This document shows positions 1-59,744 of a stretch of 60,796 nucleotides of DNA, piece after piece. The DNA comes from a virus. Its lineage: Duplodnaviria > Caudoviricetes. The position numbers and the translations under genes were made by a program. Position 1 is the stretch's first letter; the number at the start of each line of letters is the position of its first letter. The notes under the pieces were generated by a model. It worked only from the letters and a program-made list of their open reading frames with translations. It had not been told where the DNA came from and made no database searches. The stretch lies in IMG/VR virus record IMGVR_UViG_3300030450_002344, positions 1-60,796 of that record, one strand, 5' to 3'.

Positions 1-98
1 TTGCACTAAAGCAAGCGGAGCTAGGTAAGATTATAGCGGCCAGCTCTAACATAATAGAGGCGGTTAATAATCCTGACTATCAAGAACTGCTTAATACT
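1..98. repeat. Terminal direct repeat (copy 1), most likely assembly circularisation overlap
   Basis: 1-98 identical to 60697-60794; a reading frame continues through the junction. Confidence 0.92.
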
Positions 99-350
99 TC
101 GCTGACTCTACATAGTATAGAGGTTACTAAAGGTATGAAACGGGCAGCACTTAACGCGCTATTAGGTAAGAACAAAGGGCTTAAAGGTAATAAGCAAACT
201 CGTAAACAGCTAAGAGCTTTTAAGAAAGCCATTGAACCTTATACAGACCGGCCTGAAATTAAGAATCTAATAGAGATTATGACAGCTAAAAGCCTAGAGG
301 TTTCTGATAATAACTTAGAGGCTGAGGTTACTAGATGGAAGGGGAGGTAG
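1..350 (+). CDS. C-terminal part of a ~433-aa sigma-factor-like protein starting at 59745
   Basis: Frame from ATG 59745 is open across the overlap and in frame with listed ORF 135..350. Confidence 0.8.
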   Translation, partial: ALKQAELGKIIAASSNIIEAVNNPDYQELLNTSLTLHSIEVTKGMKRAALNALLGKNKGLKGNKQTRKQLRAFKKAIEPYTDRPEIKNLIEIMTAKSLEVSDNNLEAEVTRWKGR

Positions 351-436
351 TATATATACAACTATACTATATACTGCTGACTATAATATATCCCGGCTAT
401 AACTATACCGAAGACTTTAAATGCTTCTTTAGAACT

Positions 437-479
437 CTCCCCCGTAGGGGGAGGTCAGCCGGTGTCGCAGTTAAGTGGC
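437..479 (+). promoter_or_regulatory. Double-hairpin element copy A
   Basis: CTCCCCC-GTA-GGGGGAG, 10-nt linker, GTCGC-AGTTAA-GTGGC; same architecture at 2102 and 59501. Confidence 0.6.
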
Positions 480-568
480 CGACGAGCCGAGCACAGCGTT
501 GTGCTTAGGTGAATAAATAATATCTTATGTGTCGGTTTGATATGTACATGGTATGAAAGGAGTTTGAT

Positions 569-793
569 ATGCCTAACATAGATATAGATTACACAGTATT
601 AATCACTGATGAGGGGGAATTCTGTGTAAGGGGCGGGGTATTATATTGTAATAATATCCCTATGCCTTACGTGGATGAACCAGAACAAGAGTTCTATACA
701 CTAGTATCGCAGGAGATTGATAACCTGCAAGAGGGTAAAGATACGGGCAGCTATATAGAAGTTCGTAGAATGCAAGTATGGGAGGAAGCATAA
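569..793 (+). CDS. Small acidic hypothetical protein
   Basis: AAGGAG SD before ATG; TAATG coupling to the next gene. Confidence 0.7.
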   Translation: MPNIDIDYTVLITDEGEFCVRGGVLYCNNIPMPYVDEPEQEFYTLVSQEIDNLQEGKDTGSYIEVRRMQVWEEA

Positions 794-1050
794 TGCCATT
801 CGTAGAGTACGGTAAACATGGGATGAAGCGATGGGTTAATACCTATCAGGTTGGTGATGTAATATACGCTAACCATAAGGCTAAGGGCCTTGAAGATATG
901 GAAGGGTCTTGTGTAGAAACTAAGTTAGTTACTACGCAGGGTTACTGGCCGCCAGAGTACGATAAGAATACAGCCTATCGTATAGTGCAATACTTTAAGT
1001 GTGCTGTATGTGGTGTAGCTATAGAGGATAAGGAGTTTATAGATGGGTAA
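793..1050 (+). CDS. Hypothetical protein with C-terminal CxxC
   Basis: GGAGGA SD, TAATG overlap (start MPFVEY), CAVC motif. Confidence 0.65.
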   Translation: MPFVEYGKHGMKRWVNTYQVGDVIYANHKAKGLEDMEGSCVETKLVTTQGYWPPEYDKNTAYRIVQYFKCAVCGVAIEDKEFIDG

Positions 1051-1393
1051 TTTATACTCACTTCAGTGTGAACTTAATCTAATCGCTGATGGGTTAAAAA
1101 CTTATGAAGACGTTATAGATTTTAATCATGCTGATGAACATACAAAGTCTATAATGGCACAGCTTTGGGACGTATATGTAGAGCCTCCGTCTCAGTCTTG
1201 GTACACATATCAAGGATGTTGGGAAAGTGAGGATGAATTTGCTGCGGATTTAGCAAGTGAAACAGGGTTTCTTGATAGTGATTGGAGTACATACTTTGAT
1301 TATGACCTGTGGACTAATGACTTATTCATAAGTGACTACACGTCATTAGACTGTAGGCAATGTGGTGACTTAATGATAGTGAGGTATGACTGA
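1043..1393 (+). CDS. ardA: ArdA-like antirestriction (DNA mimic) protein
   Basis: Very acidic; YQGCWESEDEFAADL..ETG...YFDYDLW..DLF..DY matches the ArdA C-terminal pattern. Confidence 0.7.
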   Translation: MGNLYSLQCELNLIADGLKTYEDVIDFNHADEHTKSIMAQLWDVYVEPPSQSWYTYQGCWESEDEFAADLASETGFLDSDWSTYFDYDLWTNDLFISDYTSLDCRQCGDLMIVRYD

Positions 1394-2097
1394 TGGAAAC
1401 TAAACGCAAAACAATTAGGATACCTAATACTGGGGCATGGTTGTCTCAGATAGTAATGGATGCCATGGGATACGGAGGTGCTGAATGGCGTAGGTATAAG
1501 ATGCAAGGTATCATACGGTTGGTAACTCGTGATGGTACTAGCAAGCCTGAAGTATGTAGTAGGGCTAGGGATGAGGACTTATGGGTAATGACCGGGACTA
1601 CTGTATATATTGGTAGGTCTATAGAGATTGAAGTATTAGGAGAGATTATGGAAGGCACTGCAAAGTGGACAACAGGTAAGGATGAAGACCAAGCTGTTGT
1701 TACCACGGCGGAAAGAGATAAACTGCTAAGGGATTATTGGAATCATGCTAGGTATGTTAGTCGTGTACAAGAGTTATCTCGTGAGTCTATTAAGCGTATG
1801 CTTGATAAGTCTGAGAAACTAACCGAAGCGATTGTAAATACAGTGTACCCTGCTATTAGGCTTATGGCAGATGGCAGTTGGTACATAGATAAGGAAGGTA
1901 ACGCTCATGTAGGTTACAATCCACCAAAGACAGCTATGATTATGTATAGTCACAACTGGAAATCTAGTGAGAAGTGGGATGACTTCCGTAAGGCAGAGGT
2001 CGCACTGACTGAGGATGTACGGATATACATCCGTAACCATATAGAAGAACTTGCAGATGCTAGAGAGATAGCACACATAGTAAAGTTAATGGCTTAA
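1393..2097 (+). CDS. Hypothetical protein
   Basis: 234-aa ORF, TGATG coupling, GAGG SD. Confidence 0.75.
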   Translation: METKRKTIRIPNTGAWLSQIVMDAMGYGGAEWRRYKMQGIIRLVTRDGTSKPEVCSRARDEDLWVMTGTTVYIGRSIEIEVLGEIMEGTAKWTTGKDEDQAVVTTAERDKLLRDYWNHARYVSRVQELSRESIKRMLDKSEKLTEAIVNTVYPAIRLMADGSWYIDKEGNAHVGYNPPKTAMIMYSHNWKSSEKWDDFRKAEVALTEDVRIYIRNHIEELADAREIAHIVKLMA

Positions 2098-2101
2098 CCC
2101 T

Positions 2102-2146
2102 CTGCCCCGAAGGGGCAGGTCACAGGGTGCCGCAGTTAACCGTGGC
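2102..2146 (+). promoter_or_regulatory. Double-hairpin element copy B
   Basis: CTGCCCC-GAA-GGGGCAG, 10-nt linker, GCCGC-AGTTAACC-GTGGC. Confidence 0.6.
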
Positions 2147-2196
2147 TCGGTGGGGTCACAAAGATAAAAATGATTGGTCAACGGAAGGATAATAGA

Positions 2197-2484
2197 ATGG
2201 CTAAAAGTTTTGTTGAAGTACCACAAGATGCGGTACGAATTAGAGTCGGTGAGAACACCGAGTTGGTTGCTTGGCAATCAGAGTATAATGGGGAGAAGCA
2301 GATTAGCTTCGGCAAATCTACCCAATACAAAGAAGGTGGAGATGTCTACACTAAGATGGCTCCTCCTATCACAGCTTCTACATTCCACATGCTAGTTAAC
2401 CTAGCTAATGGACACCTCTTTGGTGGTGATGTAGATGCTCACGACGGTGTAGCTATTGAGGCTCCACGTCGGGGTGAACGTTAA
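2197..2484 (+). CDS. Putative PC4/YdbC-like single-stranded nucleic acid binding protein
   Basis: AAGGA SD before ATG 2197; ELVAWQSEYNGEKQISFGK..YKEGG..YTK resembles the PC4-fold pattern. Confidence 0.5.
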   Translation: MAKSFVEVPQDAVRIRVGENTELVAWQSEYNGEKQISFGKSTQYKEGGDVYTKMAPPITASTFHMLVNLANGHLFGGDVDAHDGVAIEAPRRGER

Positions 2485-2499
2485 TAAAGTCTAGCAAGT

Positions 2500-3136
2500 G
2501 GGAGCCTACCACCGTCAGGTTCCCCCTTACTAGTGAGATTCTTAATCTATCTCCTCTCGTCCTAGGTTAGGAGTCTCACTAGTAAGGTCTTGATAGCATA
2601 TAACGATTGTAGTTTATTAATTTAACAATTATTATTATTAAGACTTTACTATAGTAAGGCTAATAGGAGATGATCTTGACAGCCATAGCTTATTAGACTT
2701 ACTGCCTCATAAGGGTGGACAAGTAACGTGACTTCCTCACACCCCCAAGTTACTTGTACATCCCTATGAGGTACCATAGTTGCTCCTTATTATGGGACCT
2801 CTAACCATGTTGGTGCTAGGTTGGCAGGTAAAAGGTTTAAGCCATTGGCTGAGTATCCTCACCTGTCGGCCTAGTATTATAGTGGTATGTAAAGGCGCGT
2901 TTCCTGTCGGGTGGGTTTATAAGCACCCTATAAACAACGTAAGAGATTGGCATAAGCGATTAGTACAGGAAGCCAGTCCGCCTTACTCTATTAGTTACAA
3001 GTGGATTCAGTAGTTACTATCCGATGGTAAAATGCCTAGCATGACCTCCGTGGATATGACTAAGGGTGAACTCCTTACCTTTGCTGAAGCGTAGTGCACA
3101 CTAAGGGCGCTGAGGCTGCTACTGGATCCACTTGTA
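2500..3136 (+). ncRNA. Large structured ncRNA or array of about 9 back-to-back hairpin/multibranch modules
   Basis: Stems up to 25 bp whose non-Watson-Crick positions are mostly G-U on the + strand; no credible ORF. Confidence 0.8.
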
Positions 3137-3160
3137 TCTAAAAGAATGGGAGGAAGATAC

Positions 3161-3376
3161 ATGCAAATAGGGATTGAAGCACACAATGATATGACTCTAA
3201 TTGAGATCATACAAGCAGTGGAGGATGGCTTTACTGACGGAGGGGTGGAAATTTCCTTAGAGGAGGAAGTATGTAGACATGACATAGAAGCCATGGCTAT
3301 ACAGATATGGAAAGATATGTACGGAGATTTTGAGATTGATGGTTTATACATCGCAGGTGTAAGGGATAGAGAATAA
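3161..3376 (+). CDS. Small acidic hypothetical protein
   Basis: GGAGG SD before ATG 3161; D/E rich. Confidence 0.7.
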   Translation: MQIGIEAHNDMTLIEIIQAVEDGFTDGGVEISLEEEVCRHDIEAMAIQIWKDMYGDFEIDGLYIAGVRDRE

Positions 3377-3795
3377 TGACTGACTATGCAACAGTAAGAA
3401 ACAAGGTAGAGACAGATGATACTTTAGTATTTGCTGCGGGGCATGAGACCTTAGATGATAGACCGCATAAGATTACTAAAGAACAACTGGATGCTATCCC
3501 TGACTTCATCCTAAGATGGGATGATTATATACCTGTCGATGCAGTACGAGCATGGATAGAGTACCACCAAGATGGACAGAGTGAGATACATGACCAAGGT
3601 TTATTCATAAGTTCTGCTAGTTCAGATGAGTACTTTGCTAAGGTAGTCTATGAGTATGATGAGTCATTAAACAAACTCGATGATGTCTTAGCATTTGCTA
3701 TTGATTGGGAAGTTGTAGCGCATGAGCTACTTAGGGAGGACTATATTAAGTTGGAATACAACGGTAGTAACTATTACTTTAGGAGTGTTGCATGA
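3376..3795 (+). CDS. Second ArdA-like acidic protein
   Basis: C-terminal AIDWEVVAHELLREDY....NG..YYFR resembles the ArdA C-terminal domain. Confidence 0.55.
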   Translation: MTDYATVRNKVETDDTLVFAAGHETLDDRPHKITKEQLDAIPDFILRWDDYIPVDAVRAWIEYHQDGQSEIHDQGLFISSASSDEYFAKVVYEYDESLNKLDDVLAFAIDWEVVAHELLREDYIKLEYNGSNYYFRSVA

Positions 3796-4019
3796 GTATG
3801 GAAGGATTGACTGACAACGGGGTAGCTCCTGAAGAGGGGAACGTAACGAGGGAAGGCTTACTGCTATACCGATTAGAGGGATACTTAAATAAGCTGAGGT
3901 ACTCGTTACAACAATTAGAAGATACATTTGAAGGCACTGACCATGAAGGATTGTTCCGTAACATACAGGACATGTCTGAATGGGTAGAAGAAATAAGAAA
4001 AGAGATTAAGAATGGCTAA
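3792..4019 (+). CDS. Hypothetical protein
   Basis: AGGAG SD; overlaps both neighbours. Confidence 0.65.
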   Translation: MSMEGLTDNGVAPEEGNVTREGLLLYRLEGYLNKLRYSLQQLEDTFEGTDHEGLFRNIQDMSEWVEEIRKEIKNG

Positions 4020-4260
4020 CATTACATTAACAGAGAGCACAATAGAAGAGATAGCATCCGCATTAGAGAGACACTTAGCACCAGCTATTGAAGATCCGGG
4101 TAATATTATTGATTACGACTACGAAATAAATGTCAGTGGTGAAGGTGATGGGTACAGTAATACAGATGTAGACATAACCTTACGTGTTGATGAGACATCA
4201 TTGAAGGCTGTGATAAAAGAGATACTAGAAGATGACTTAGGTGAAAACAGCGACGCTTAA
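4012..4260 (+). CDS. Highly acidic small protein (possible DNA mimic)
   Basis: 82 aa, strong D/E excess. Confidence 0.65.
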   Translation: MANITLTESTIEEIASALERHLAPAIEDPGNIIDYDYEINVSGEGDGYSNTDVDITLRVDETSLKAVIKEILEDDLGENSDA

Positions 4261-4272
4261 GAGGAGGTTGTA

Positions 4273-4548
4273 ATGGGTTGGAGAGCGATGTATCCAAAGT
4301 TTTATGTAGAGTTCTTTAACGAGAATGGACATCAAGCTATCATCGAGATGCCAGATCATATCATCACTGATGCTATAGGAAACTTTGTACAAGATGAGAT
4401 AGATAATGATGACCTGCTACGTGGTGGTAGGTGGCGCTTACTGTCTGATGAAGAGGCCGAACAATGGGAACGTGACCAAGATGATAAGGCTAACCTTTAC
4501 GATGATGAGCGCCAGTATGATAATGAAGACTGGAATTGGGAGAAGTAG
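4273..4548 (+). CDS. Acidic hypothetical protein
   Basis: GAGGAGG SD; D/E/W-rich C-terminus. Confidence 0.7.
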   Translation: MGWRAMYPKFYVEFFNENGHQAIIEMPDHIITDAIGNFVQDEIDNDDLLRGGRWRLLSDEEAEQWERDQDDKANLYDDERQYDNEDWNWEK

Positions 4549-4549
4549 T

Positions 4550-4780
4550 ATGGGTGTAATACATGACACAAATGATAGGCAACTAGCACTTGCTATCTTT
4601 GCAACATTAAATAGAGAAGTAATGGATAGTATAGGACGGCAGGATCCAAAGGCAGATACAGTTAATGAGCTGTTCCAGTATTGGATTCGTCTGTATTATA
4701 AACAGACTACACCTACAACGGAGAAGGTATGGAATTATGTCAGAGATTTACCACGAAGATTGTTTAAACACAATCAATAG
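4550..4780 (+). CDS. Hypothetical protein
   Basis: Likely start MGVIHD just after the upstream stop, GGGAG SD. Confidence 0.55.
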   Translation: MGVIHDTNDRQLALAIFATLNREVMDSIGRQDPKADTVNELFQYWIRLYYKQTTPTTEKVWNYVRDLPRRLFKHNQ

Positions 4781-5489
4781 GTTGAGATGGGAACATGTAC
4801 GAGATAATAAAAAGACTAGGCAGCCTGTCGATTTGGTAGTAACATCACCCCCTTACAATATGAATCTACGTATACAAAATGGTAAGTATCGTAGCCGCCA
4901 GATTACTGAAGAGTTTAGTAATAAGTATGATGGCTTCACAGATAACATGCCGATTGATGAGTACACAAACTTTCATAGCTTAGTACTTGAAAGTCTATTT
5001 GGTATCTCTGACCTAATCTTTTATAATGTGGGCATTGTTACTGGCAGTAAACGTGCATGGTTTAAAATAATTGGAGACTTCTCTAAGTATCTAAAGGAGA
5101 TTATTATCTGGGATAAGGGGAACGGACAGCCCGCTATGCAACAACAAGTATTGAATCGGCGCTCTGAACTTATACTGGTGTTTGATAATGACTATGCTAT
5201 TAGCAGACAGTTTAGAGATAAGGGTACGTTTGAACGTGGTACGTTGGATGATGTATGGAATATAGGTAGGCCACTACCACATGAGAAGGTAGATAATCAT
5301 GCTGCACAAATGCCTGAAGCATTAGTAGAAAGAATCCTCTTGAACTTCAGCGAAGAAGGTGATACAATCTATGATCCATTCATGGGTACAGGTACCACTG
5401 GTGTTGTAGCTAAGAGGTTGAATAGAAAATTCATAGGCAGTGAGCTAGTAAAAAGCTACTACAATACTGCACAAAAAAGATTGGGTTGA
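4737..5489 (+). CDS. Class beta amino-DNA methyltransferase (N4-C/N6-A)
   Basis: IYHEDCL N-terminus, motif IV VVTSPPY, motif I DPFMGTGTT, FIGSEL. Confidence 0.92.
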   Translation: MSEIYHEDCLNTINRLRWEHVRDNKKTRQPVDLVVTSPPYNMNLRIQNGKYRSRQITEEFSNKYDGFTDNMPIDEYTNFHSLVLESLFGISDLIFYNVGIVTGSKRAWFKIIGDFSKYLKEIIIWDKGNGQPAMQQQVLNRRSELILVFDNDYAISRQFRDKGTFERGTLDDVWNIGRPLPHEKVDNHAAQMPEALVERILLNFSEEGDTIYDPFMGTGTTGVVAKRLNRKFIGSELVKSYYNTAQKRLG

Positions 5490-5490
5490 T

Positions 5491-6000
5491 ATGAGTACCT
5501 TTATAAACAAAGAACGTGCTGAATCTTTCACTAATATACTGAATGACCTTTCTGTAAGAGTGTTCGGTAAAGAACCTTCGGAAGCTATACTAGCTGGTGA
5601 ATGCCTAGGTTGTGGCATCACTGTAGATTTAGATTCAATGCACATTGCTAGACAAGAACGCTATGGGATATGTGGTATGTGTAGTGACTGCCAAGCCAAT
5701 TGGTTACCCGCAGAAATCTTTGATTCTCCTCAGAATGAGGAACAGTTGAAGGGACAGTGGGGTGTACCTAAAAGGTTTAAGCAACCACGCTATAAAAAAT
5801 CACGAGAGAAAATTGTACGTGCTATGAAAAAGAATCATCCGTATAAGCCAATTGAAATTGAAGAACGATCTGGCGTAGCAGGTACTACTATCATGCGGCA
5901 CCTAAAAGATATGCAACAGCATAGGAAAGTATCACAAATAGAAGTTTTTGGCAAGGTAATGTATGTAAGATTGGTGGGTATAAAAGATGCAATGTCCTAA
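5491..6000 (+). CDS. Zn-finger plus winged-HTH protein
   Basis: CLGC...CSDC; C-terminal IEIEERSGVAGTTIMRHLKDM HTH-like. Confidence 0.55.
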   Translation: MSTFINKERAESFTNILNDLSVRVFGKEPSEAILAGECLGCGITVDLDSMHIARQERYGICGMCSDCQANWLPAEIFDSPQNEEQLKGQWGVPKRFKQPRYKKSREKIVRAMKKNHPYKPIEIEERSGVAGTTIMRHLKDMQQHRKVSQIEVFGKVMYVRLVGIKDAMS

Positions 6001-6184
6001 CTGTAAGTCCCGGTCAGTACGTGAAGATGATCCGGGAGAATACATATGTAATATATGTGGTCATATGATATACGATAAGGACACAATGATACGTGTCATG
6101 ACAGCACTATCAAGCGACATCGTACTAACGGCCACAGAAACACAACGTAGAAGGTTCCCCACTATAGGAGGGCAGAAGTTATGA
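5987..6184 (+). CDS. Zn-ribbon small protein
   Basis: MQCPNC...YICNICG. Confidence 0.65.
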   Translation: MQCPNCKSRSVREDDPGEYICNICGHMIYDKDTMIRVMTALSSDIVLTATETQRRRFPTIGGQKL

Positions 6185-6345
6185 GTAAGATAGTATATGA
6201 TAGTGAGTGTATATTCTGTGAGGAAGGCATAGAGAAGGGTGAAGAATCATGGTGTACGGCTGATGGCTATGATGCTCACAAGTTTTGTTGGGAGTCAGCC
6301 GCAGATAGTCCAGATGTATGGACAGCGAGACAGATATATGGATAA
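6181..6345 (+). CDS. Small Cys/His protein, 54 aa (not in ORF track)
   Basis: AGGAGG SD, ATGA overlap; MSKIVYDSECIFCEEGI...AHKFCW. Confidence 0.65.
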   Translation: MSKIVYDSECIFCEEGIEKGEESWCTADGYDAHKFCWESAADSPDVWTARQIYG

Positions 6346-6383
6346 AGTATGGATAAGTTACGTACCTTTTGAGGAGGTTGAGT

Positions 6384-8729
6384 ATGATATTACTATTCGA
6401 CCTGCCAAGTCTACACAAGATGATGAGTCCTCCATTAGATACCAAGCTGGTAAATCTAATAGCACTGAGGATGTCATACAAACTAAAGATGGTGCACTAC
6501 CCTGATACTATTGTAGTGTTTAATACTGAGGATAATCGTGGTGCTTTCTTTCAAGACTGCCACTACACCACCAATGTATTAAACAGTATTAAACGTGCGG
6601 GGATATCATTCGATGATGCAGTTATTATGTCAGCTAATCCTGAAGTGCTGGCTTTGAATAACTATGGTGCCACTAGCTATAGACCATCTGAGAACTGGCT
6701 AGACCCACAAGAAGTTACTGCCAACAGAGTTAAGCTTGACCTAGGGTATGACCCTAGAGATGTTAGCTTCTTTGCCAAGCAGAAGATTGTGGAGCCTAGC
6801 AAGGCAGCTAAGATGAAGGCAGGTCAGACAAGAAAGAAGCGATGGGATTGGGCTGAGAATCCTATGGAAGGAGAGATCAAGTTGAAATCTATCGCAGATA
6901 ATATACATGTCAAGGTGGGTAGGGAATCATTCTCTAATTATGAGGTGATACAAGACCTCCCTGACTTCTTGACAAAACTATCTAAAGTTGATATAGTAGG
7001 GTGGGATACGGAAACTAATGGACTTAGTTGGCAGAACAACCATATCGTAGGAGAATCATTTAGCTTCGACGGTAAGCATGGGTACTACCTGCCAGTATCT
7101 CACAATACAGAAGGTGAATATAAGAATGTACCATGGGGTGAGGTGAAGGATAAGCTTCATCCTATGTTGGCTAAGAAAACCTTAGTCGGTGCCAACCTCT
7201 CTTTTGATGTGCTGATGGCAGCTGAACATGGACTAGGGTTCCCTACTAATCTATTAGATGTGCAAGGGTTTGCCTATATGTTAGGTATGCATGTACCACA
7301 ACCTAACAAACTAGGGCTGAAGGCATTGTCGGCTGACATACTCGGTGATGTTATGGAAGAGTTTGGTGCAGTAACAAAGGGGGATACCTTTGATAACATT
7401 GACATTGCTCGTGGTGCTCCTTACGCTGCTGATGATGCCGTCAAGTCGTTTAGATTAGGACAAGTATTAGGTAAGCGATTAACTGAGGAGCAACACAAAA
7501 GATACACAGAGATAGAGATGCCATTCTTATCAGCATGTATACGCATGTCTTACAATGGTATGTTCTTAAATATGGAGAAGCTAAGTCCTCTGCTCCATGA
7601 GTTAGAGGGTCGTGCTGAACTATTAAACAGTAGGATACAGATGTACAATGGCGAAGAGATGAATGTCAATAGCCCGGTACAGCTAGGTAAGCTACTGTTC
7701 AAGAAGCTAGGGTTACCTACAACAGCACGTACTAAGACAGGGTACTCCACATCAAAGGCAGAGCTTGAACGTATCGAGAACACACATGAAGTGGTTGGTA
7801 TTATACTAGAGTATAGAGAGTTAGCAAAGTTAATTAACACCTATCTCAAGGGATACCCTGACCACATCGGTACGGACAATCGGATACATTCAAGGCTTAA
7901 TCCATTCAGAGTAATAACAGGTAGGCTGGCATCAACCGAGCCAAACCTAATGAACATACCGATAAGGACAGACAATGGCAAATCAATCAGAAGGTTATTT
8001 GAAGGTGAGGGGGAACACGTACTCTTGTCAGCTGATGCAGCACAACTTGAGTATAGGATTCTTGCACACTACTCTAAAAACCGGACCCTCGTTGACGCTT
8101 TCTCTGACGAGACAAGAGATGTCCACAAAGAAATGGCATCGCTTATCTTTGAAGTTCCTGTTAGTGAGATTACCGGAGACCAAAGAAGTGCAGCTAAAAA
8201 TATCGTATACGCCGTTATCTACGGGGCCTCTCCCATAAAGATATCGATGATGTTGAATAGACCAGTGGATTATGCAGCCAATGTACTTAACAAGATTGCA
8301 TCGAACATACCAGAGATTGAACGATTACGTACAGCAGTTATTACTGATGCTCGCAAGTATGGGTATGTTGAATCACTTGGAGGTCACAGGTCATACATAC
8401 ACGGCATCAATTCATACAATAGTTCTGAACGTGGCGCAGCAGAACGGTCAGCATTTGATTCCCTCTTCCAAGGAACAGCAAGTGGTGACATCACAAAGAT
8501 AGCAACCAACAAGATACAAGAATTACTTGACAAAATATATCCGGATAAGTTTAATCCCGGTATAAAGTTGGTGCAACAAATACACGATGAAGTATTACTG
8601 GAGGGAGATGAACAAGAACTTACAAGTATAGCACCGGAGGTACTGTTAGCATTTGAAGATGCAATGTCATTAGACGTACCGCTTGTTGCAGAGTACTCGA
8701 TAGGAAAAAACTGGGGCGATATACACTAG
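6384..8729 (+). CDS. polA: Family A DNA polymerase with 3'-5' exonuclease and extra N-terminal domain
   Basis: GAGGAGG SD before ATG 6384; ExoI WDTET, ExoIII YAADD, TGRLAS.EPNLMNIP, motif A DAAQLEYR, motif B KNIVYAVIYG, motif C IHDE. Confidence 0.96.
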   Translation: MILLFDLPSLHKMMSPPLDTKLVNLIALRMSYKLKMVHYPDTIVVFNTEDNRGAFFQDCHYTTNVLNSIKRAGISFDDAVIMSANPEVLALNNYGATSYRPSENWLDPQEVTANRVKLDLGYDPRDVSFFAKQKIVEPSKAAKMKAGQTRKKRWDWAENPMEGEIKLKSIADNIHVKVGRESFSNYEVIQDLPDFLTKLSKVDIVGWDTETNGLSWQNNHIVGESFSFDGKHGYYLPVSHNTEGEYKNVPWGEVKDKLHPMLAKKTLVGANLSFDVLMAAEHGLGFPTNLLDVQGFAYMLGMHVPQPNKLGLKALSADILGDVMEEFGAVTKGDTFDNIDIARGAPYAADDAVKSFRLGQVLGKRLTEEQHKRYTEIEMPFLSACIRMSYNGMFLNMEKLSPLLHELEGRAELLNSRIQMYNGEEMNVNSPVQLGKLLFKKLGLPTTARTKTGYSTSKAELERIENTHEVVGIILEYRELAKLINTYLKGYPDHIGTDNRIHSRLNPFRVITGRLASTEPNLMNIPIRTDNGKSIRRLFEGEGEHVLLSADAAQLEYRILAHYSKNRTLVDAFSDETRDVHKEMASLIFEVPVSEITGDQRSAAKNIVYAVIYGASPIKISMMLNRPVDYAANVLNKIASNIPEIERLRTAVITDARKYGYVESLGGHRSYIHGINSYNSSERGAAERSAFDSLFQGTASGDITKIATNKIQELLDKIYPDKFNPGIKLVQQIHDEVLLEGDEQELTSIAPEVLLAFEDAMSLDVPLVAEYSIGKNWGDIH

Positions 8730-11670: not shown

Positions 11671-12219
11671 ATGGCTACAGAAGAAATTGAGGTGTTGGAA
11701 TTGGGTGAAGATCTTCTTGACGCAAACAACGTCTCTGACCGAACGGTCATCTTAGCAGAAATTGCAGGGGAACCTGTGTTTCAAAAGCGAACGATCACTT
11801 ACAACGACAAGGAAACTGGTGAAGAGCGTTCATTCCCTAAAGTGGAATTGAAATGGTCTTACCGCCAGATACACCCTGAAGTTTCGAGTCCTGATCGTGA
11901 CATATACATCAACATTAGTCGAGCGCAAGCTGAAGCGTTGGAAGCAGGTAAGTCTCCATCCATGCATGCCAAGACTGATCTTGGTAGGATAACCAGACAG
12001 TGTTCAGACGCTGGATTGCCGAACCCCGGTAGTTCTGACCTAGTTGGTAAAGTCCTAGTACTTGCATCGTACACTGAGGAATTCCGTGGTCGTACTGAGC
12101 GCAAGTATGATGTGCTAGCAACTGTTGGAAGTGCAGAAGACTTTGACCTTGAGCGTGGCATTGCCATTGTTCAAGACGAAGCTCTTGCATCAAAGCAGCA
12201 AGTATCAGCTAGCTACTAG
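11671..12219 (+). CDS. Putative ssDNA-binding/replication protein
   Basis: Acidic, beta-rich, located in replication module; function inferred from context. Confidence 0.45.
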   Translation: MATEEIEVLELGEDLLDANNVSDRTVILAEIAGEPVFQKRTITYNDKETGEERSFPKVELKWSYRQIHPEVSSPDRDIYINISRAQAEALEAGKSPSMHAKTDLGRITRQCSDAGLPNPGSSDLVGKVLVLASYTEEFRGRTERKYDVLATVGSAEDFDLERGIAIVQDEALASKQQVSASY

Positions 12220-12243
12220 CGAATAACTCCTCCGATTAGGGGG

Positions 12244-12272
12244 TTGCCAAATGTCTGCAGATATGTTATAAT
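12244..12272 (+). promoter_or_regulatory. Sigma70-type promoter
   Basis: TTGCCA-17 nt-TATAAT with TG extended -10. Confidence 0.75.
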
Positions 12273-12284
12273 TATGTGTAGACA

Positions 12285-12448
12285 TATTGGTGACCTCTTT
12301 GGAAGTTATCAAGGATTATTGAGTCTCATACTTACATGATTCCCCAATCATATGAGACAACATTTAAGGTGACGCGAAGGGGGAACTCGCTGAATAAGTC
12401 CTTACGTGCCTAGCACATTCTTGATAGTTTCCAAAGAAGTCATCAATA
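12285..12448 (+). ncRNA. Structured RNA / 5' leader with ~31-bp closing stem and three inner hairpins
   Basis: 12285-12315 pairs with 12418-12448 (G-U rich); inner CCCC and GGGGG loops are complementary. Confidence 0.7.
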
Positions 12449-29709: not shown

Positions 29710-30942
29710 TTAACTTAGTGTTGTACTCAACGAGTGAATCCAGCCGTGGGCCTTAGTCGCGTTTCGTACTTCCATTGTGTACTCACCAGTGATTGTAGCA
29801 ATCTGTCGGTCGCCGTCAACTGGAACTGGTGTAGTGAAGAATGAACGGTCATTGCCGTTACCCTTAAGTGCACCAATACCTAGGTATTCTTTCTGAACGA
29901 TAATCAAGTCAGCTGGCTTAACGTATCGGTCAAGAACAATGTCTAGGTTACCAAACTCAGACTCGTAAGTACCAACGATAACACCGAGTGCGTTCTCATT
30001 TCGGTCAGTCCGTACATACGGGCTAGCGAAAGAAGAGAGAACTCGCTTCTGTGTTGCGTTTACTAGGATAGTATCTGGATTACCACCATCATCCCAGATG
30101 TCTTGCAGACAATCTACAAGAAGTTTCTCAGTCAATTTGGCTGAAGAAGCATCCTGCAAGTTTGCAGTGGCATCGTTACGGATGTAGGAGAACAGTCCAC
30201 CCATTCGTCTTACGTTTGTCAAGTCAGTGTTATCGGATGGCAAGCTGTTTGCCAAACCATAGTGAGCAGCTCTTTCGAGCTTAATTACAACCTCTTGGAA
30301 CTTCTTAGCGAATTCTCGGTCGAACTCGTTTGTTATACCAAACTTCTCAGTTGCCTCGGAAGTACCAGAAACTGATACTGCGTCGTGGAAAATCTGAGTG
30401 TAGTTTGATGCAGAAGTTAGGTCAGTTGATGAGTAAACGGTCGTGAATGCTGCACCGTCAAATCGTAGACTACCAAGGTTATATACTACATCACCAACAG
30501 CGTTAGCTGCTAGTGAGGCTGAACCATCAGCCTGAACGATGGTGAAAGCACCACCGGATGTATTTACGGCTGAAATTTCACCGTAAGTACCATTTAATTC
30601 AACAAGGTCACCAATGTTAAAGTAGTTGATGGCAGTAGTGCCAACTGTTACTGTAGTATATGGTGAACCTGAGTCAGCACCTGTTAGGGTTGCTTTGGAA
30701 GGGATTAATTCATCACTCTGCCATGTGTGTGTTGGGTTAATACAAGGGAATGCTAGTGAATCAGCACCTGCTACTGCAGTTCCTGCTTCTGATCCCATGC
30801 CCAACATGGAGAGTAGTGGAATATCCCTAGGGTCGATTGCGTCAATAAAGTCCGAAACGTTCTGCTTCTGAGTATAGGCACTATCAAATATAGTCCTCAT
30901 ACCACCAGCAGCACCGTCATCGGCTCTGTTTACTGCTACCAT
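29710..30942 (-). CDS. Major capsid protein (SU10/DUF5309-like)
   Basis: HTWQSDEL, NYTQIF...VSVSGT, RRMGG, YESEFG, GEYTMEVRN. Confidence 0.9.
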   Translation of the reverse strand: MVAVNRADDGAAGGMRTIFDSAYTQKQNVSDFIDAIDPRDIPLLSMLGMGSEAGTAVAGADSLAFPCINPTHTWQSDELIPSKATLTGADSGSPYTTVTVGTTAINYFNIGDLVELNGTYGEISAVNTSGGAFTIVQADGSASLAANAVGDVVYNLGSLRFDGAAFTTVYSSTDLTSASNYTQIFHDAVSVSGTSEATEKFGITNEFDREFAKKFQEVVIKLERAAHYGLANSLPSDNTDLTNVRRMGGLFSYIRNDATANLQDASSAKLTEKLLVDCLQDIWDDGGNPDTILVNATQKRVLSSFASPYVRTDRNENALGVIVGTYESEFGNLDIVLDRYVKPADLIIVQKEYLGIGALKGNGNDRSFFTTPVPVDGDRQIATITGEYTMEVRNATKAHGWIHSLSTTLS

Positions 30943-31832: not shown

Positions 31833-34800
31833 TTAATCTCTATATCTTGCAAACCTTGGAGTATCACTTGGGTATGAGAAGGTAGGAGAGCGACCATATG
31901 GTGTGAAACTACCTCTACCTCCCAAACCGAGCATTTCCTTAGTTTGATAGATCAATTTTAATGCCTGTACCCACTGTTCAAATGAATAGTTTGTGCCTAC
32001 AGGGAACGTTCTAAACATAGCACGTAACATACGTTCATGGTTACGAGTTAACTTCTGGCTTGGGTTTGTAAAGAAGTTGGTAAGTGCATCTTCAAATGAA
32101 GCATCATGGAATACCATATTGATATGCTTAGATACTTCACTCCATTCAGGTAAGCCACCGACCCCAGAAGTTGTTGGTGCCGCTTGTCTACCACTCGCAG
32201 CAGGTTTAGACCATTTACGAGTAGGCAATGCTACCTTAGTAGGTGTTCTTTCATTTCTCTTACGTCCAGTAGCTATTCCTACTATAGCTGAAAGAGCATC
32301 AATATACTGGAAAGAAGCAATCTTAGCATCTTTATCTGCTACTCCACTTGCACCTGTTAGTCGTAGTAGAGTGGCTACTTCTCTAATGTTTGATAAGTCA
32401 CCATACATTCGACTAATCTGGGGGAACAGACTTTCCCACATATCTTTAATGTCTTCAATATCTGCAACACCGTTTCTTGCAAATGTTTCAAATATAAAAT
32501 CTCCGGGCATAAGGTTCTGTGTCTGCCTGTAATACCGTGAGGCGATAGATGCTTTAATATTTTGGGCCTCTTCAGAAAGTCTAGGGTGTTGTGCTAAATC
32601 ATACAACTGGTACTTTCTACCAATATTCCTCGCATCATCGCTTACTGAAGGGTAACCGCTTTGTGGTTTGCCTCTAATAGTTTGTGGTATACCTGTTACA
32701 TCATCAAATTCAGGTAAATCCATCTCTTCTTCAACAGCAGCTACAACACCTAGTGGCGTTTCTGATTTATCCCTCTCAGCATACATTCGTTTTAAGTGTT
32801 CTGCTTGTTCCCACTTACCAGCGTCTTCTAATTTTTTGATTGATAAAGCTTCTGCAATAATTTTATCTGCGTCCTGTTGAAAGTATTTAAGATATAATTT
32901 GTGTTCATCCAGAGTTGGATCAAGTTTGTTATAAATGTCATAAAGTGATACAAACTTCATAAGTTCTTTGACTTCTAAAGCTGCCTTAAACTCTTCAAGT
33001 GTTTCTGCGTCATAGATTCCAAGTTGCTGGTTTGGTGCCATAAAGTGATACTGTTCATCCCACGGAGCAGCTTGATCAAGGTCGGTTTGTAACCGTGTTA
33101 CCTTCTCATCCCATGCACCATTCTTCATGTCCATATATGTAATGTTCTTTACATCACCAAGTCTTTCTGTTATGTGTTTTACAAGGTCAGATTGTGTATA
33201 CTCATTACGTTCCATCCAAACTTTGCCATACTCGTTGGTCTCCAACCAGTCCATAACACCTTCAACTGTAGGTGGCTTCCACATATCTATAGTAGTTTGT
33301 ACTGAATTTGCCATAGAAGCTACATCTCTAAGCTCACCTTCGTAGATTCCGTTAATCTCTGTTTGTATCTCTCTCATAACAGATTCAATAGCTTTGTCTA
33401 CTATTTGTGGCATACTTGCCGATGAAGCTTCTACTATTTTGTATAGACGGAATTGCTCAGGATCTTTAGCTTCCATCGCAGTTTCCCACTCTTCTACTTC
33501 TTTAAGATATTGGCCCCAGTTGACAATGTTTGTTGTCCTACCATCCTTAGCCACCACAGAGAACTCATCTTTTCTAGCAGTAAATTCTTCTGAGAATAAT
33601 GTAGGAGCTGTCTTACGCTTGTCTTCTCGCATAAGTTCAACAAAGCTCTCAAGCTGCCATGCGTTAAACATGTCTACACTTATAAACCTTGGGTCGTATC
33701 TAACTCCAGTTTTTTCATACTTCCAGTCAGACATGTCTTGTAGAACTTGCTCAACATCTTCTCGTTTTATCTCACGGTACTCACCATCAACGAACAAGGT
33801 GTCCATCACTTCTTCAACTTTGTGTACTCCTGCCATAGGATCATCCGCAAACAATGTCATGAACCATTCATCTTTGATAAGTTTATCGCGTGTCAGTTGC
33901 CTCCATAGTTGCGTAGAACCGAATGAAGTTTTATCCATAATGTGATTCGGGTCAATAGGTACACCACCGACCTCTTCAGGAGATAGACCTACGTTTACAC
34001 CTGTTGTTTCAAATATACGTAACTTAGCTTCTTTAAGTTGTTCATTCTTTCGGTTGTTAACAGTCTCTAAATCTCTAAAGAAGGTCTCATCCATTGCAGG
34101 AGGATCTTGTATTTCAAGTCCAAACTCACTAAGGTTTGGTCTATCTTCACTTCTACCACTTGGTATTGAAGGACGTTCACCGGGAATTGCAGCTATACCT
34201 GCATCGTACTCGGCATTTATATCTTCGGCAACCTGATAGAACATACTCGAAGCTTGTGCACGGTTAATTGCGTTATGTTCAAACTTCTTATTATTCAACC
34301 AGTTTCTTGCCCAAGGTGTTCCCTCAAAGAACTCAGAGTACTTTTTACTCTTTTGTGCTTCAGTTAAAGACCTACTTCTTACAATATCATAGTAGTTATT
34401 CATAACATCCGCAGGATATACTTTTTTACCAGTGGAAGGATCTAAAGTATATTCACGTCCCGGTTTGAAAGAAAACCCTAATAGAAGAGAAGATGAATCT
34501 TGTATACCACGCCTAGAACCTGCCGCCCTTTCCATATCATTATGTACTTGGTTAAGAACAGACATGTCTACTTTCTTACCTGTAATAGGGTCAATAAGTT
34601 CTGCCTCTGGGTCTAGCTTATGTCCAAATATTTTTTGACCAGTATCCCCTATTGTGTGCAATAACGGAATATTTATCACGTTATTCTGTTTTTGACGACT
34701 CCATGCATCCCAAGCAAGAAGAAGCAAATACAACTTCTCATTTGTTTCAGGGTTCGGGTCAGGTGATTGTACCTGTACTTCTCTACCATTCTCATCAATT

Positions 34801-37800
34801 GTAACTGTGTAGTTATTCATTATAGCTGCGTGAGCTGCGTTCATATATGCATAATCAATTTCTCGAATATCTCTGTTTGTTCGGATAAGTTGCGTTGTAC
34901 TAAAAGCTCCCGTAAGACCTGCTGTTACACTCATCGCTGTATCTATAGGACGAGTAAATGAACCAATAGTCTTTTCAAGCTTATCAACGTTCTCACCATA
35001 TTGACCAGTAACAGTCATAGCGGTTGTAATAGCTGGATTAAGTGGTAGCTTAAGCATACCAGAGTACACTTCAGCCATCTTACCTAACCGACTAAAGTCA
35101 TCCATAGCATTTAATGGATCTTCACCAGCTCTAATTCTTCCTCTACCTGATGGGTAGTAATCAAACATGTCATTCCAGAAGAGTACTGCATCAACATTAA
35201 GAGATGCTCCATCTGAGTATTTTTCTGCTACAGAAACCCATCCGCCGGGATCTATGCCAAGCGACTTGGACAAACTAAAGAATGGTTGTAGTGCCTGACC
35301 AATTGGTATATCACGTTGCGCCCATTTTGAGGAACCTAAGTCTCTATTTACATCTCGTATAGATTGTAGGTACTGTGTAACCCTATTTAGTAGCTTTGGG
35401 TTATCCATGAGTGTCATAGCTGTCTTACCAGCTGTACGTGTTTGCCAAATATGCCACGGACCAAGCCACCTAATGAGGTAATCAAGATTACTTGTATTGC
35501 TGTAATCATGTAGAATCCAGTCAGCCTGTGCCTGTGCAAGTTTAGCAGAAGTTCTACGCAGTTGATTAGTCTGTACTTCTAACTCATCCATTAGCGTTCG
35601 TAGTTTGGTTACATCTTCTCTTGATATGACTCTAGCTGGACCATCATCAACAGGTGTGTATGGTTTAGTTCTATCTGCATATGCAGCAGCACGATCTCTT
35701 ATATCACTTACAGCCATACGCTGTTGTGCTCTAGCTTTTTCAAATACTTTCTGCTCTCTAACAAACAGATCAAGAATTTCGTCTCGTGATGTATTAGGTC
35801 GTCCATATATAGGCCAACCTTTATCCCACTGGTCCATCATATAGTTTGAAAGATTTTTAAGAGCACGTCTACGTACAGCTATTTCGTAAGCTAGATTATC
35901 TTTAGTTTTTCGCCTTCTGAACCATGCTATAAACCCTTTATAAACATCTGAGTCTTGATCTTTCAAGTCAGCAATCTCATCAAGAACCTCTTTTAGTTCT
36001 TTTTGTGCAAATTCAGGAGTCATTCTTCGGTTGGTTTGTAATCCTGCTGAACCTGACCATGATACTTGGAAACCTGTCCAGTTCTCAGTACCACGCGATT
36101 CTTGTCGATACTTCCAACCAATCTTCTCGTTATCTTTTTTCAGTCTATCTCGATATTCTGCAAGACGCTTAATACCAGCTTCAATTTCTGCCTCATTAGC
36201 ATCTTTTCTTACAAAAACTGCAAGACGGTTCATAGCCAGCTCACCACTTTGATTCCACGAATCGTCTGTAATAAGGGGAACATACCCATCAGGTGCTTGT
36301 TGCATAGGAACACGCCCATGAACACCTTGTGGTGGGAATTGATCTAGTACAGTACCGTCTGTTCTAGTCTGTGGGTCCATACCAAAGTTCATTGGGAGTA
36401 CTGCTTCATCTCCACTAAATTTTATATGCTTTCCTTCTACAGGATCTGGTAATGTCCATGTGTAATTAGGGTCACTCTTAGCTTTACTTATTGCACGTTG
36501 GGCCGGACCAAATGTACGAGAACGAGTAATATCCTCAGTCTGTCCTCTAGGAATTATCATACGCATAAGAGGTATGCTAAAAGTTCTCCCCTTTGCAGAC
36601 GGTCTTCCAAGAAGACTTTCTAATTGTAGTCTTTTTTCAGGATTAAAGGCATTTTCACGAACATCTTCAAAGTTATTACGACGGGGCATCCCTCGGTAAT
36701 TAATATCTTTACCAAGATCAAACTCTCGTGTCTTATGCATTGGGTCAATCGCTTCTATTTGATCTGCAAAATCATCAAGTAAGTCCGCGTCTAACTCTGT
36801 GTCAAGATATAAACCACTCCAAGCTCTTGCCTCTGCTTCTTTATACTTGCTTAAATTATCTATGAAAGCACCAAGACTATCACTTACAGGTTCTCTTCCG
36901 GGTAGGAAAGGAACTTGATCGAAGGCTTCTGTTGTTCCTCCTGCTGTGTAATCATCATCGAGTTTTCTTTGCCACTTCCGTAAAAAGCCCAATACAGGAA
37001 CTTTTTCTAATAAGATACGATCAAATGCATGTTGACCTTGATCATGCCAAACATCCATACCAGCTTCATCTGCACGACTTATCCCATGCTTACGTCGTAA
37101 GTCTGTTGATTTTGGTTCTAATCCAAGTGCGCTACGAACTTCATTTAATCGATTAATACTATCCTCTATATAAGAATCTTTACCTTGTAGTCTTTTTTGT
37201 ATTGCATCAAGTAGTTTTTCTTTAGCTCTTCTAGCATCTTGTCTAGAATAAACAGATCTAGGACGTGTGTTTCCCCCTGCATTAGATAAGAACTGTTCTG
37301 TTAATACACGTATATCTTCGATGGCTTTTTTAGAAGATTCATTTAAGCTCTTTGCAAGCTCATCAATTTGATCTCTAGTATTTCTTTTAGCAAATGCTCT
37401 TTCTGTTACAGCATCTGCTAGTGTACCTAATTCCTCTCCAAGCTCATTTGCTTTTTCAATTAACTCTTTCTCACTAAGTGGTGGCCTCGTCGGATTCGGT
37501 TCTATTGTTACAAATTTACTCTTTGTTGCAGTACGTTTTGGTTGGAAGAATGTACCATCGTCAATACGTCGTTGTATCGCCATGTTTACATCAGCATTGC
37601 TAAAGGTCATTTTAGCATTTTTAGTAAAGTATTTATTACGGATAAATTGTGCATCTAGTAATTTAGTATCTGAACCGTTAAATAAAATATCCATCAGTGT
37701 TTCATCAATAAGTTTTTCTTTTACAATATCGTCAGCTGTTGCAAAATCTATGCCCTTAATACGGTCATCGAGACGTTCTTTTAGCTGCTTAGTAGGTATC

Positions 37801-54935: not shown

Positions 54936-55011
54936 CGCGGGGTGGAGCAGTGGTAGCTCGTCAGGTTCATTGTCTGAAGGTCGTCAGGTTCGATTCCGGC
55001 CCCCGCTACCA
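54936..55011 (+). tRNA. tRNA-fMet (CAT), atypical anticodon loop and T-stem
   Basis: CGCGGGG/CCCCGCT acceptor with unpaired C1, GAGC/GCTC D-stem, TTCGATT T-loop, encoded CCA. Confidence 0.88.
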
Positions 55012-57471: not shown

Positions 57472-57920
57472 TTGAAATTTCTGGATCTGTCGGCCTATAG
57501 TATTCTGTTCTTCTCAACTGCCAAGGGTACCCTACGTTCCTTCTCTACCTTTCCCACACGCGCGAAAAAAAATTTATGTCTATACTAACAAATATTATTA
57601 GCACACACTAACAATTATAGTTAGCACGTACATACAGATCCCGTCAGGCTGCCCATCAAATCCCGGGCAGCACACACTACAAAATCCAGCACGCTCACAC
57701 TACTATTTCCAGCGTGCCCATGCTATCAATGCCAGCCTCCACAGACTACAGAACTTGAGCAGCTAAAATAAACCTGAGTAAATAGGTCAGGTATTATGAT
57801 AGGTTTGCATAGATTCTACTCCAAAATTGGTAGGGGATAGGGGTTGTATTCTGAGAAAAGCTGTGCCCATAATGTATACAGGTTCAAACGGTAGACAGCC
57901 GAGAGAGGAGGTTAAAAAAA

Positions 57921-58328: not shown

Positions 58329-58474
58329 CGAGGCAACCACATCGAGGGTCGTGACCACCACGGGCTAGCTACCACAGCTAAACAACAGGGGAGGCCTTCA
58401 GGAACCGGAGGCCTTCCCACCACCAAGGGATTTAGACAAGCAGCAACCCTGGTTGTAGACAAGAGGAGCAAACA

Positions 58475-58897: not shown

Positions 58898-58900
58898 GAT

Positions 58901-58927
58901 AGGAGGGGCTTCGGCCCCTCTTCTCTT
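58901..58927 (+). terminator. Intrinsic terminator
   Basis: GAGGGGC-TTCG-GCCCCTC followed by TTCTCTT. Confidence 0.8.
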
Positions 58928-58939
58928 ACCCCTAACATA

Positions 58940-59460
58940 TCTTGTTAGCACACACTAATAATTTTTATTAGCCTACCCTAATTATTATTTTATGGTCACA
59001 CTAACCCGGGAATTATACACACACTAATATATATTTTATGTTCATACATATTTTTTAATAACATCTCTCTTCTATAGTATATACTATAGTTAAAACTATA
59101 GTAAAGATAAACTATAATAATATATAATATATATATAATATAATATAATATTGTGGTGTGGTGCTAGTATGATGATGTAGTGTTGGTATAGTATAGTGAT
59201 GCTGTATTAATCCCACCCACCACCCTAGTATAGTATAGATATATGGTAGTGTCAAGTACATATGTTACCGGGATGTTACAGAATGATTACGATTGTGTTA
59301 CATACTGGTAGATTTAGGTAGGTTTGCTACGAAATTATGGTAAAACTAATCTAATCTGTCGGTATTACCTGAGCTTTAGTGTTCGTTTATATATCATTCA
59401 TAAGTTAGGTGGTGCTAACTAGGTGTATTAGTGCGTACTAACATGGCACATATGGTACTA
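58940..59460. other. AT-rich non-coding region with CACACTAA repeats and palindromes (candidate origin or genome-end region)
   Basis: 18-bp palindrome at 59072-59089, near-pure AT tract, repeated CACACTAA. Confidence 0.5.
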
Positions 59461-59500
59461 CTATGCCAGTCTATTGACTAATAGGTTCGGCTATATTATT

Positions 59501-59546
59501 CTGTCCCTTACGGGACAGGTTGCGGCTCGCTGCATTTAGGTGCGGC
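59501..59546 (+). promoter_or_regulatory. Double-hairpin element copy C
   Basis: CTGTCCC-TTAC-GGGACAG, 10-nt linker, GCTGCA-TTTAGG-TGCGGC. Confidence 0.55.
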
Positions 59547-59744
59547 TCGGCCCTTTAGGGATCGTTGCTGTAATGTTTAATCACTTAACTGTTTAATAGT
59601 CTAGGTTCTATGCGGTTTCTTACTAGCTAATAGGACATATTAGATCGGCTATATAAACGAAGGGGGGTTGACAAGTTTTGATATACTGGTCGTAAGTCGT
59701 TTAACGACGAACGGCCTAATAGGAATCGGAAGGAGTATTTAATT

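Follow-up and report, generated by a model that had tools for sequence, protein, structure and literature searches.

The start of the virus record IMGVR_UViG_3300030450_002344 (Caudoviricetes), whose 60,796 nucleotides (nt) are the stretch of DNA analysed here and called the window below, holds an array of hairpins between two genes. We show that this interval is non-coding and forms a structured element restricted to one clade, with selection acting on its + (sense) strand fold, and that it is built as a constant frame carrying exchangeable hairpins. The array (2485-3145, ~660 nt) lies between a gene for a protein of 95 amino acids (aa) at 2197-2484 and a 71-aa gene at 3161-3376, both on the same strand. 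An earlier model-made annotation of the bare DNA letters (the sequence-only reading) had described 2500-3136 as a row of back-to-back, non-repetitive RNA hairpins and as a candidate undescribed phage RNA.

Folded as RNA, the + strand of 2485-3145 reached -256.1 kcal/mol, compared with -184.8 +/- 7.3 kcal/mol for its shuffles (z -9.8; 0 of 20 shuffles as good), while the - strand reached -201.4 kcal/mol (z -5.1). When the entire 60.8 kb were scanned in 150-nt windows with a step of 50 and the minimum free energy was regressed on GC content, 8 of the 25 most extreme + strand windows, including the three strongest, fell within 2451-3150. The nine hairpin units (Table 1) folded as the sequence-only reading had claimed, eight of them better than all 200 of their shuffles, and only 2889-2986 was weak. 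A pair-by-pair reading of the helices likewise returned the three G-U pairs that had been counted in the stem of 25 base pairs (bp) and the six in the 19-bp core. The deviations from perfect pairing had been described as mostly G-U on the + strand, and the + strand fold of the window indeed contains 31 G-U pairs and three single A.C mismatches. Among the inverted repeats, the stems of H1 and H4 and the closing stem make the strongest pairs. Hexamers shared by the stem ends had also been noticed: CTTACT occurs three times and AGTAAG twice within the interval (0.17 and 0.21 expected). Since multiple copies are confined to the window lineage, a role of these hexamers as a universal cassette boundary was rejected. 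As a separate observation, a cluster of small hairpins with ACCAC-type loops lies at 58329-58470; ACCAC is also present in the loop of H0 (2508-2516).

Table 1. Hairpin units of the array, further cassettes found in relatives, and features directly upstream. Fold values are z scores and the number of shuffles that fold as well as the native sequence.
Feature	Position	Strand	Fold	Remarks
GC hairpin (7 bp, GAA loop) followed by conserved box	2102-2160	+		just upstream of the 95-aa gene
95-aa gene	2197-2484	+		directly precedes the RNA locus in all loci examined (alignment A3, 16 sequences)
H0	2500-2524	+	z -3.9, 0/200	constant 5' hairpin, GGGAGC...GUUCCC
H1	2525-2587	+	z -9.0, 0/200	constant 25-bp stem without mismatch; hypervariable tip, window tip loop UCUCCUCUCGUCC
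H2	2588-2650	+	z -5.3, 0/200 (for 2581-2650)	AT-rich cassette; 4/15 variants
H3	2653-2703	+	z -3.2, 0/200	cassette; cleanly deleted in some natural genomes, absent in L016
H4	2703-2773	+	z -5.6, 0/200	cassette, loop CUUCC; 4/15 variants
H5	2774-2795	+	z -3.8, 0/200	small cassette, loop UGCUCCUU; 4/15 variants
H6	2804-2886	+	z -7.3, 0/200	constant 19-bp stem, variable tip; absent in L030
H7	2889-2986	+	z -1.6, 15/200	largest cassette, weakest fold; limited to the window and L030 (the most distant lineage); absent in L001
3' domain	2996-3136	+	z -5.9, 0/200	constant four-way junction, 19-bp closing stem
S				small hairpin, loop CCCCUCUCC; 6/15 variants
G and K				cassettes; 3/15 variants (L018, L019, L030)
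M and N				cassettes; 1 variant each

Relatives were found through searches with the flanking proteins and with DNA patterns. Four further IMG/VR contigs carry the same locus, and it recurs in 21 metagenome loci; after removal of duplicates there were 12 distinct full-length and three partial variants from marine metagenomes. The element is 395 to 663 nt long in these variants, comprises 5-9 hairpins and, wherever enough downstream DNA is available, comes after the same 95-aa gene. Its downstream neighbour varies; in L008, an extra small open reading frame (ORF) comes after the element. Three parts are constant: H0-H1 at the 5' end, H6, and the four-way-junction domain at the 3' end, with L030, which lacks H1 and H6, as the exception. 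The occurrence of modules was tabulated with reference modules and blastn-short; this under-detects the short, diverged stems H0, H1 and H6, whose presence rests on alignments A5 and A6.

Within the constant parts, covariation was looked for among the homologues, and pairs changed on both sides were found in all three. The stems of H0 and H1 together (28 pairs, 14 sequences) were paired in 97.7% of the alignment cells with six pairs changed on both sides; H0 contributes 8 pairs (93.8% of cells paired, three pairs changed on both sides) and H1 its outer 20 pairs (99.3% paired, again three changed on both sides), one of which is a U-G pair invariant in 14/14 sequences. None of 500 shuffles reached the observed pairing or covariation score, and sliding the partner strand reduced pairing to 38-56%. 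For H6 (17 pairs, 11 distinct sequences), 96.8% of cells were paired and four pairs had changed on both sides (slid controls 27-46%), and here too one U-G pair is invariant (11/11). In the 3' domain (39 pairs, 12 sequences), 99.4% of cells were paired and four pairs had changed on both sides (slid controls 29-47%). Its closing stem P1 (19 bp) keeps a U-G pair in 12/12 sequences. P2 covaries (A-U to G-C, C-G to U-A) and bears an insert of variable length, the 5-8-bp hairpin P3 at ~3062-3082 has an invariant ACUCC loop, and the GCAC and AAGG loops of P4 are invariant as well. Identity in the core columns was 87% for the 3' domain and 82% for the 5' domain, compared with 72.5% for the adjacent gene (32 pairs with a gene identity below 80%).

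The preferred strand is the same throughout. The + strand folded better than the - strand in 12/12 variants, by 14-52 kcal/mol, and G-U pairs were commoner on the + strand in 11/12; summed over the 12 variant folds, 255 G-U pairs stood against 14 single A.C mismatches. The sequence-only reading had taken such wobble pairs as a sign of selection on RNA, and the covariation together with the conserved G-U pairs supports selection on the + strand fold. It had further considered that the interval might be one large non-coding RNA. This needs modification: relatives drop, swap and add entire hairpins between the constant ends, so a single compact fold across 660 nt is unlikely. The 3' domain is a discrete multi-helix RNA.

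Within the constant frame, closely related phages differ by gain, loss and exchange of cassettes and hairpin tips. An exact 53-nt skip (2652-2704) was present in one contig of run X13 and an exact 109-nt skip (2878-2986) in one contig each of runs X5 and X13, in both cases beside full-length forms in marine DNA; direct repeats GACTT(T)ACT flank H3 and the 53-nt skip. L017 (2783-3199) and L023 (916-1350) carry tandem H1-type hairpins with different tips and an H3-like hairpin between them, which suggests paralogy between the H1 of the window and that of the L007 group. In the tips of H1 and H6 both length and content vary, and the sub-motifs of these tips were not found elsewhere in 312 kb of related loci. 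Two of these motifs, A and B, were considered as promoters and dismissed, as they are present in H1 tips only. A 33-39-nt piece of H7 (2901-2939) was also seen in contigs with flanks unlike those of the window (X5 record 18, X16 record 9), which are probably divergent versions of the same locus.

The loops share a short motif. CUCC is present in 2-4 copies per variant, and 32 of the 36 copies are unpaired, although only ~31% of the bases are. Among the 256 tetramers, CUCC ranked first in 57 non-redundant hairpin loops (9 observed versus 1.86 expected), and none of 2000 within-loop shuffles reached 9. We regard this enrichment as suggestive. Three loops of the window read CUCCUU(A), which we take to resemble the 3' end of 16S rRNA. 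GGA-containing tetramers were absent from the ten most enriched, both in hairpin loops and in all unpaired segments, and G makes up 14% of loop bases. A search of the window with the 15-nt complement of the H1 loop gave nothing beyond chance.

The 95-aa protein encoded next to the element matched no Pfam or PHROG family. Its C-terminal PRRGxR tail is invariant in alignment A3 (n=16). An AF2 model (pLDDT 71) has four strands and a helix (E-E-E-E-H). The top Foldseek rows for this model were weak matches to PC4 homologues (E 0.05-0.3), with the PC4 homologue of phage T5 among the matches, and the top 17 rows of VIA-align were all PC4, Sub1, Pur-alpha or Whirly, at Z of only 7.2-4.9. The predicted structure is thus consistent, if modestly so, with a PC4/Whirly/Pur-alpha-like fold; members of the PC4/Whirly fold, a curved sheet of four strands with a helix after it, bind single-stranded DNA or RNA. 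The family is narrow and confined to this phage clade: a profile search yielded one full-length cluster at 50% identity, two fragments and the weak candidates P0043 and P0054, for which no locus was found in IMG/VR.

Upstream of this gene, the GC hairpin and its box are one of three copies in the window (430-500, 2095-2165 and 59494-59560, the hairpins starting at ~437, 2102 and 59501), each with a 7-bp stem, a loop of 3-4 nt and the box GTC...CGCAGTTAA / GGCTCGG. In most of 14 loci a hairpin of the same shape but different stem sequence stands at the same place. This arrangement is a candidate early promoter or terminator-promoter element, possibly of N4 type. Since N4 has three hairpin-type early promoters (PMC4496689) and a conserved hairpin box lies upstream here, we infer that the 95-aa gene and the RNA form one early transcription unit.

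How might such an element work? Tentatively, we favour a processed RNA that works in trans, its C/U-rich loops and conserved 3' domain serving as a decoy or sponge. The array would be transcribed together with the 95-aa gene as part of an early operon. Host RNase III is predicted to cut the perfect helices of 19-25 bp, which would release stable hairpin RNAs and the 3' domain. During host takeover these RNAs could then act in trans as a decoy or sponge, the CUCC and CUCCUU loops being offered to GGAG-type sequences or to an RNA-binding factor. A candidate partner of these RNAs is the PC4-like protein encoded next to them, which ends in an arginine-rich tail. A bolder form of this idea, which we consider unlikely, is that exchangeable decoy hairpins on a fixed scaffold, once processed, and the PC4-like protein make up a ribonucleoprotein that mimics the 3' end of 16S rRNA with its CUCCUU loops and titrates Shine-Dalgarno (SD) sequences or a host RNA-targeting factor. 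The fast turnover of cassettes and tips would then reflect an arms race with different hosts, and the array would be an RNA counterpart of the protein 'accessory islands' in early regions.

Several points weigh against the decoy or sponge reading. CUCC had caught the eye before any test was made, the loops counted include some of common ancestry, and after correction for 256 tetramers a Poisson estimate was borderline only. When all 12-mers of the region were compared with the phage itself, no extended antisense target emerged; the longest match was 12 nt, about what chance gives. The relatives are close (flanking protein at least 63% identical) and most pairs never vary, so the covariation counts rest on few events. 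Moreover, a shuffle control is not the same as a probability. With DNA parameters both strands fold well and are much closer to each other than as RNA, at -106.9 kcal/mol (z -7.7) for the + strand versus -95.2 kcal/mol (z -6.1) for the - strand, and energy alone hence does not exclude a DNA hairpin.

Another explanation is that the array acts in cis only, as a spacer for processing and stability between two cistrons. It would provide RNase III sites and 3'-end protectors for the cistrons of a long early transcript and, by its folding, deny Rho and RNases access to a long untranslated stretch, without any function in trans. We consider this possible, though somewhat doubtful. It agrees with the position of the array between two cistrons on the sense strand, with the perfect 19-25-bp helices, with the persistence of the locus despite cassette loss and with the precedent of the T7 early region; furthermore, neither terminator-like sites nor an excess of sigma-70-like promoter sites were found in 1-6500. 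In T7, the early genes have RNase III processing hairpins (R0.3-R1.3), one per junction, with characteristic internal loops. The array shares with them long sense-strand hairpins between cistrons of an early operon and helices of about two turns: H1 (25 bp) as well as the H6 core and the closing stem (19 bp each) correspond to the ~20 bp or more of intercistronic, sense-strand double-stranded RNA of a T7-type site. However, the array packs 5-9 hairpins where one or two would be enough for processing, adds a four-way junction and turns its cassettes over. A spacer also leaves unexplained why the 3' four-way junction with its invariant loops is more conserved than the neighbouring gene, and the tetramer enrichment in loops would be superfluous for processing sites.

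Alternatively, the conserved entity could be the DNA itself, a single-stranded or cruciform element that might serve as origin, recombination hotspot or hairpin-type signal and on which the PC4-like protein would act. PC4 relatives bind single-stranded DNA, and the linked gene has a PC4-like fold in its model, with the T5 homologue among the matches. Folded as DNA, either strand is far more stable than its shuffles, and H2 is AT-rich. Yet this AT-rich cassette is present in just 4/15 variants, the tip motifs do not recur in the 312 kb of related loci, and the conserved G-U positions and the excess of G-U over A.C pairs favour one strand, the sense strand. N4 promoter hairpins have 5-7-bp stems and 3-nt loops, whereas the stems of the array measure 7-25 bp, its loops 4-13 nt or more, and its best fold is on the non-template strand. 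N4-type phages do use DNA hairpins as promoters, but these are described as short, with a GC-rich heptamer centred at -11 between inverted repeats, and are read on the template strand (PMC4496689). RNA is the simpler reading, because the wobble positions are conserved, the favoured strand is the sense strand of a rightward operon and the core columns are more conserved than the adjacent gene; we judge a DNA-level element unlikely.

The loop motif could also serve the flanking genes directly if the CUCC loops of a cis-regulatory leader paired with their SD sequences and thereby timed translation. These SD sequences are AAGGA and GGGAGGAAG, the downstream one being 8 nt away from the end of the 3' closing stem. 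Against such a leader, the downstream gene varies, as the extra ORF of L008 illustrates, a single anti-SD would suffice, and 400-660 nt far exceed the need of known translational operators. We regard this explanation as rather improbable.

Could the array be a pile-up of selfish or neutral palindromic cassettes, similar to miniature inverted-repeat transposable elements (MITEs), at a permissive intergenic site and without a function of its own? Cassettes are gained and lost, their sharing is patchy (H7 in the window and L030; G and K in L018, L019 and L030), deletions are exact, and H1 is duplicated in L017 and L023. Against this, the phage genome contains no copies elsewhere (self matches only). 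A pattern search of IMG/VR with three patterns (for the 3' domain and cassette G) returned this locus only, except that the shorter pattern also hit two unrelated sequences by chance, and the single match in 185,579 species genomes was an unrelated chance match; L012, L014 and L041 are such chance pattern matches. Evolution is slower in the constant parts than in the gene beside them, and the G-U asymmetry also speaks against mere accumulation; we judge this origin distinctly improbable. Finally, hidden small protein genes are very improbable: a 12-codon ORF in the 3' domain (MT[KN]GELL...) is intact in 10/12 variants and a - strand ORF of 26-30 aa is present in 7/12, but the former loses its stop in L019 and its ATG in L025, lacks a well-spaced SD sequence and has substitutions that fit the helices, and no ORF of at least 25 aa is common to all 12.

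We then compared the array with described RNAs. Rfam 15, which includes GOLLD, ROOL, ribozymes, riboswitches and Y RNA, gave no match to the array at gathering score, in agreement with the proposal of an undescribed RNA; the sole match at that score in the window is a tRNA at 54936, which is also the one tRNA of the window. At E up to 10, 2300-3300 yielded sub-threshold rows for miRNA hairpins and one for a snoRNA (15-26 bits versus cut-offs of 36-230), with no ribozyme row among them. A ribozyme was accordingly rejected: the 3' domain contains the string CUGAUG, but not the final A that follows it in the hammerhead core. As the sequence-only reading had argued, the array is neither CRISPR nor a repetitive extragenic palindromic (REP) element. 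It consists of inverted repeats, and the one direct repeat has two 15-nt copies of 80% identity; tandem direct repeats of one unit, as in CRISPR or type III antitoxin-like RNAs, were not found in it, nor were dispersed copies at many unrelated loci, as expected for REP, MITE or Correia-type elements.

Staphylococcus aureus RNAIII and other small RNAs use C-rich (UCCC) loops to pair with SD sequences, and like RNAIII the array is a multi-hairpin RNA of ~0.5 kb, whose apical loops may likewise display a C/U-rich motif complementary to GGAG; in contrast to RNAIII, to which it has no sequence relation, it is phage-borne and modular. The sponge RNAs CsrB and RsmZ carry many GGA motifs in their loops. 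The array resembles them in that stems of unlike sequence present one short loop motif repeatedly, but its motif is CUCC rather than GGA and occurs in just 2-4 copies per RNA. In the T4-type hyperplastic regions, promoter-early stem-loop (PeSL) cassettes flank protein genes and carry an early promoter; they, too, are stem-loop-bounded units that shuffle in phage early regions, whereas in the array each hairpin is itself a cassette and there is no enrichment of promoter-like sites. GOLLD and ROOL are often carried by phages and have fixed, complex folds. They are described as large ornate RNAs (PMC12286853); the array is, like them, a phage-borne, structured non-coding RNA of more than 400 nt without an assigned function, but it is a chain of exchangeable hairpins that matches no Rfam model. 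The frame-plus-cassette build sets the array apart from T7 sites, RNAIII, sponge RNAs and GOLLD/ROOL.

Among the papers listed in literature searches on phage non-coding RNAs with anti-SD loops, on early non-coding RNAs of N4-like phages and on large structured phage RNAs, none describes the array. A catalogue made from IMG/VR is described as comprising 8,495 candidate structured RNAs of 29-151 nt and none longer than 151 nt (PMC10690425). It shares its data source with the present record, and H1, part of the 3' domain or other single modules may already be among those candidates.

To our knowledge, few large structured RNAs of phages have been described, and hardly any has been assigned a function. 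To these the array adds a well-defined RNA family of 400-660 nt, in which the conserved ends covary and near-identical phages differ by swaps or deletions of hairpins in the middle. The locus also offers a concrete candidate RNA-protein pair, made up of the array RNA and the PC4-like protein encoded beside it. Should the hairpins serve as decoys or sponges, exchangeable RNA modules, and not just small proteins, could carry phage counter-measures; if they are a processing spacer only, tandem RNase III-type hairpins can be stable and conserved in the early operons of abundant marine phages.

The wider genome setting is that of an early-type region. The record is listed as a virus record with a completeness of 100. 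Rightward genes run from ~50.7 kb through the record end to ~19 kb and encode DNA polymerase A, a helicase, exonucleases, ribonucleotide reductase, methyltransferases and an ArdA-like protein, with DNA methyltransferase genes close to the array; the leftward block (19 to 50.4 kb) includes the major head protein, the large terminase and a 3758-aa ORF. The array had been placed 'among ArdA-like genes', a statement that now stands on a single gene: the ArdA-like anti-restriction gene at 1043-1393, 1.1 kb upstream of the array, matched Pfam ArdA (28.8 bits, cut-off 27) and a PHROG anti-restriction family (E 4e-6), but the gene at 3376-3795 had no ArdA match in Pfam or PHROG.

A marine origin is indicated by the runs containing this DNA, which are marine metagenomes, and by homologues of the neighbouring gene that bear Tara names. 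The runs listed for the stretch included no RNA run, which speaks neither for nor against transcription. Among isolated phages, there was no match to the array region (blastn) or to either flanking gene (tblastn), and the phage DNA polymerase was just 29-33% identical to those of phages among the matches listed. The 3758-aa ORF (31833-43109, -) recalls the N4 virion RNA polymerase in its size and its place in the structural block. It was not accepted as such, as it had neither a PHROG nor a PDB sequence match and only sub-threshold Pfam rows, and an N4-type lifestyle thus remains a suggestion.

Further regions of the window attracted attention in their own right. The stretch 58900-59500 is gene-free, very AT-rich (GC down to 0.17-0.21) and full of repeats, has a GC hairpin before it (~58905-58925), and looks like a genome end or control region. 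In the fold scan, the second strongest + strand region was 12151-12400 (residual z down to -3.5), directly before the exonuclease gene at 12458, and the strongest outliers on the - strand were 30451-30600 (residual z -3.8), inside the major head protein gene, and 57551-57750 (residual z -3.3).

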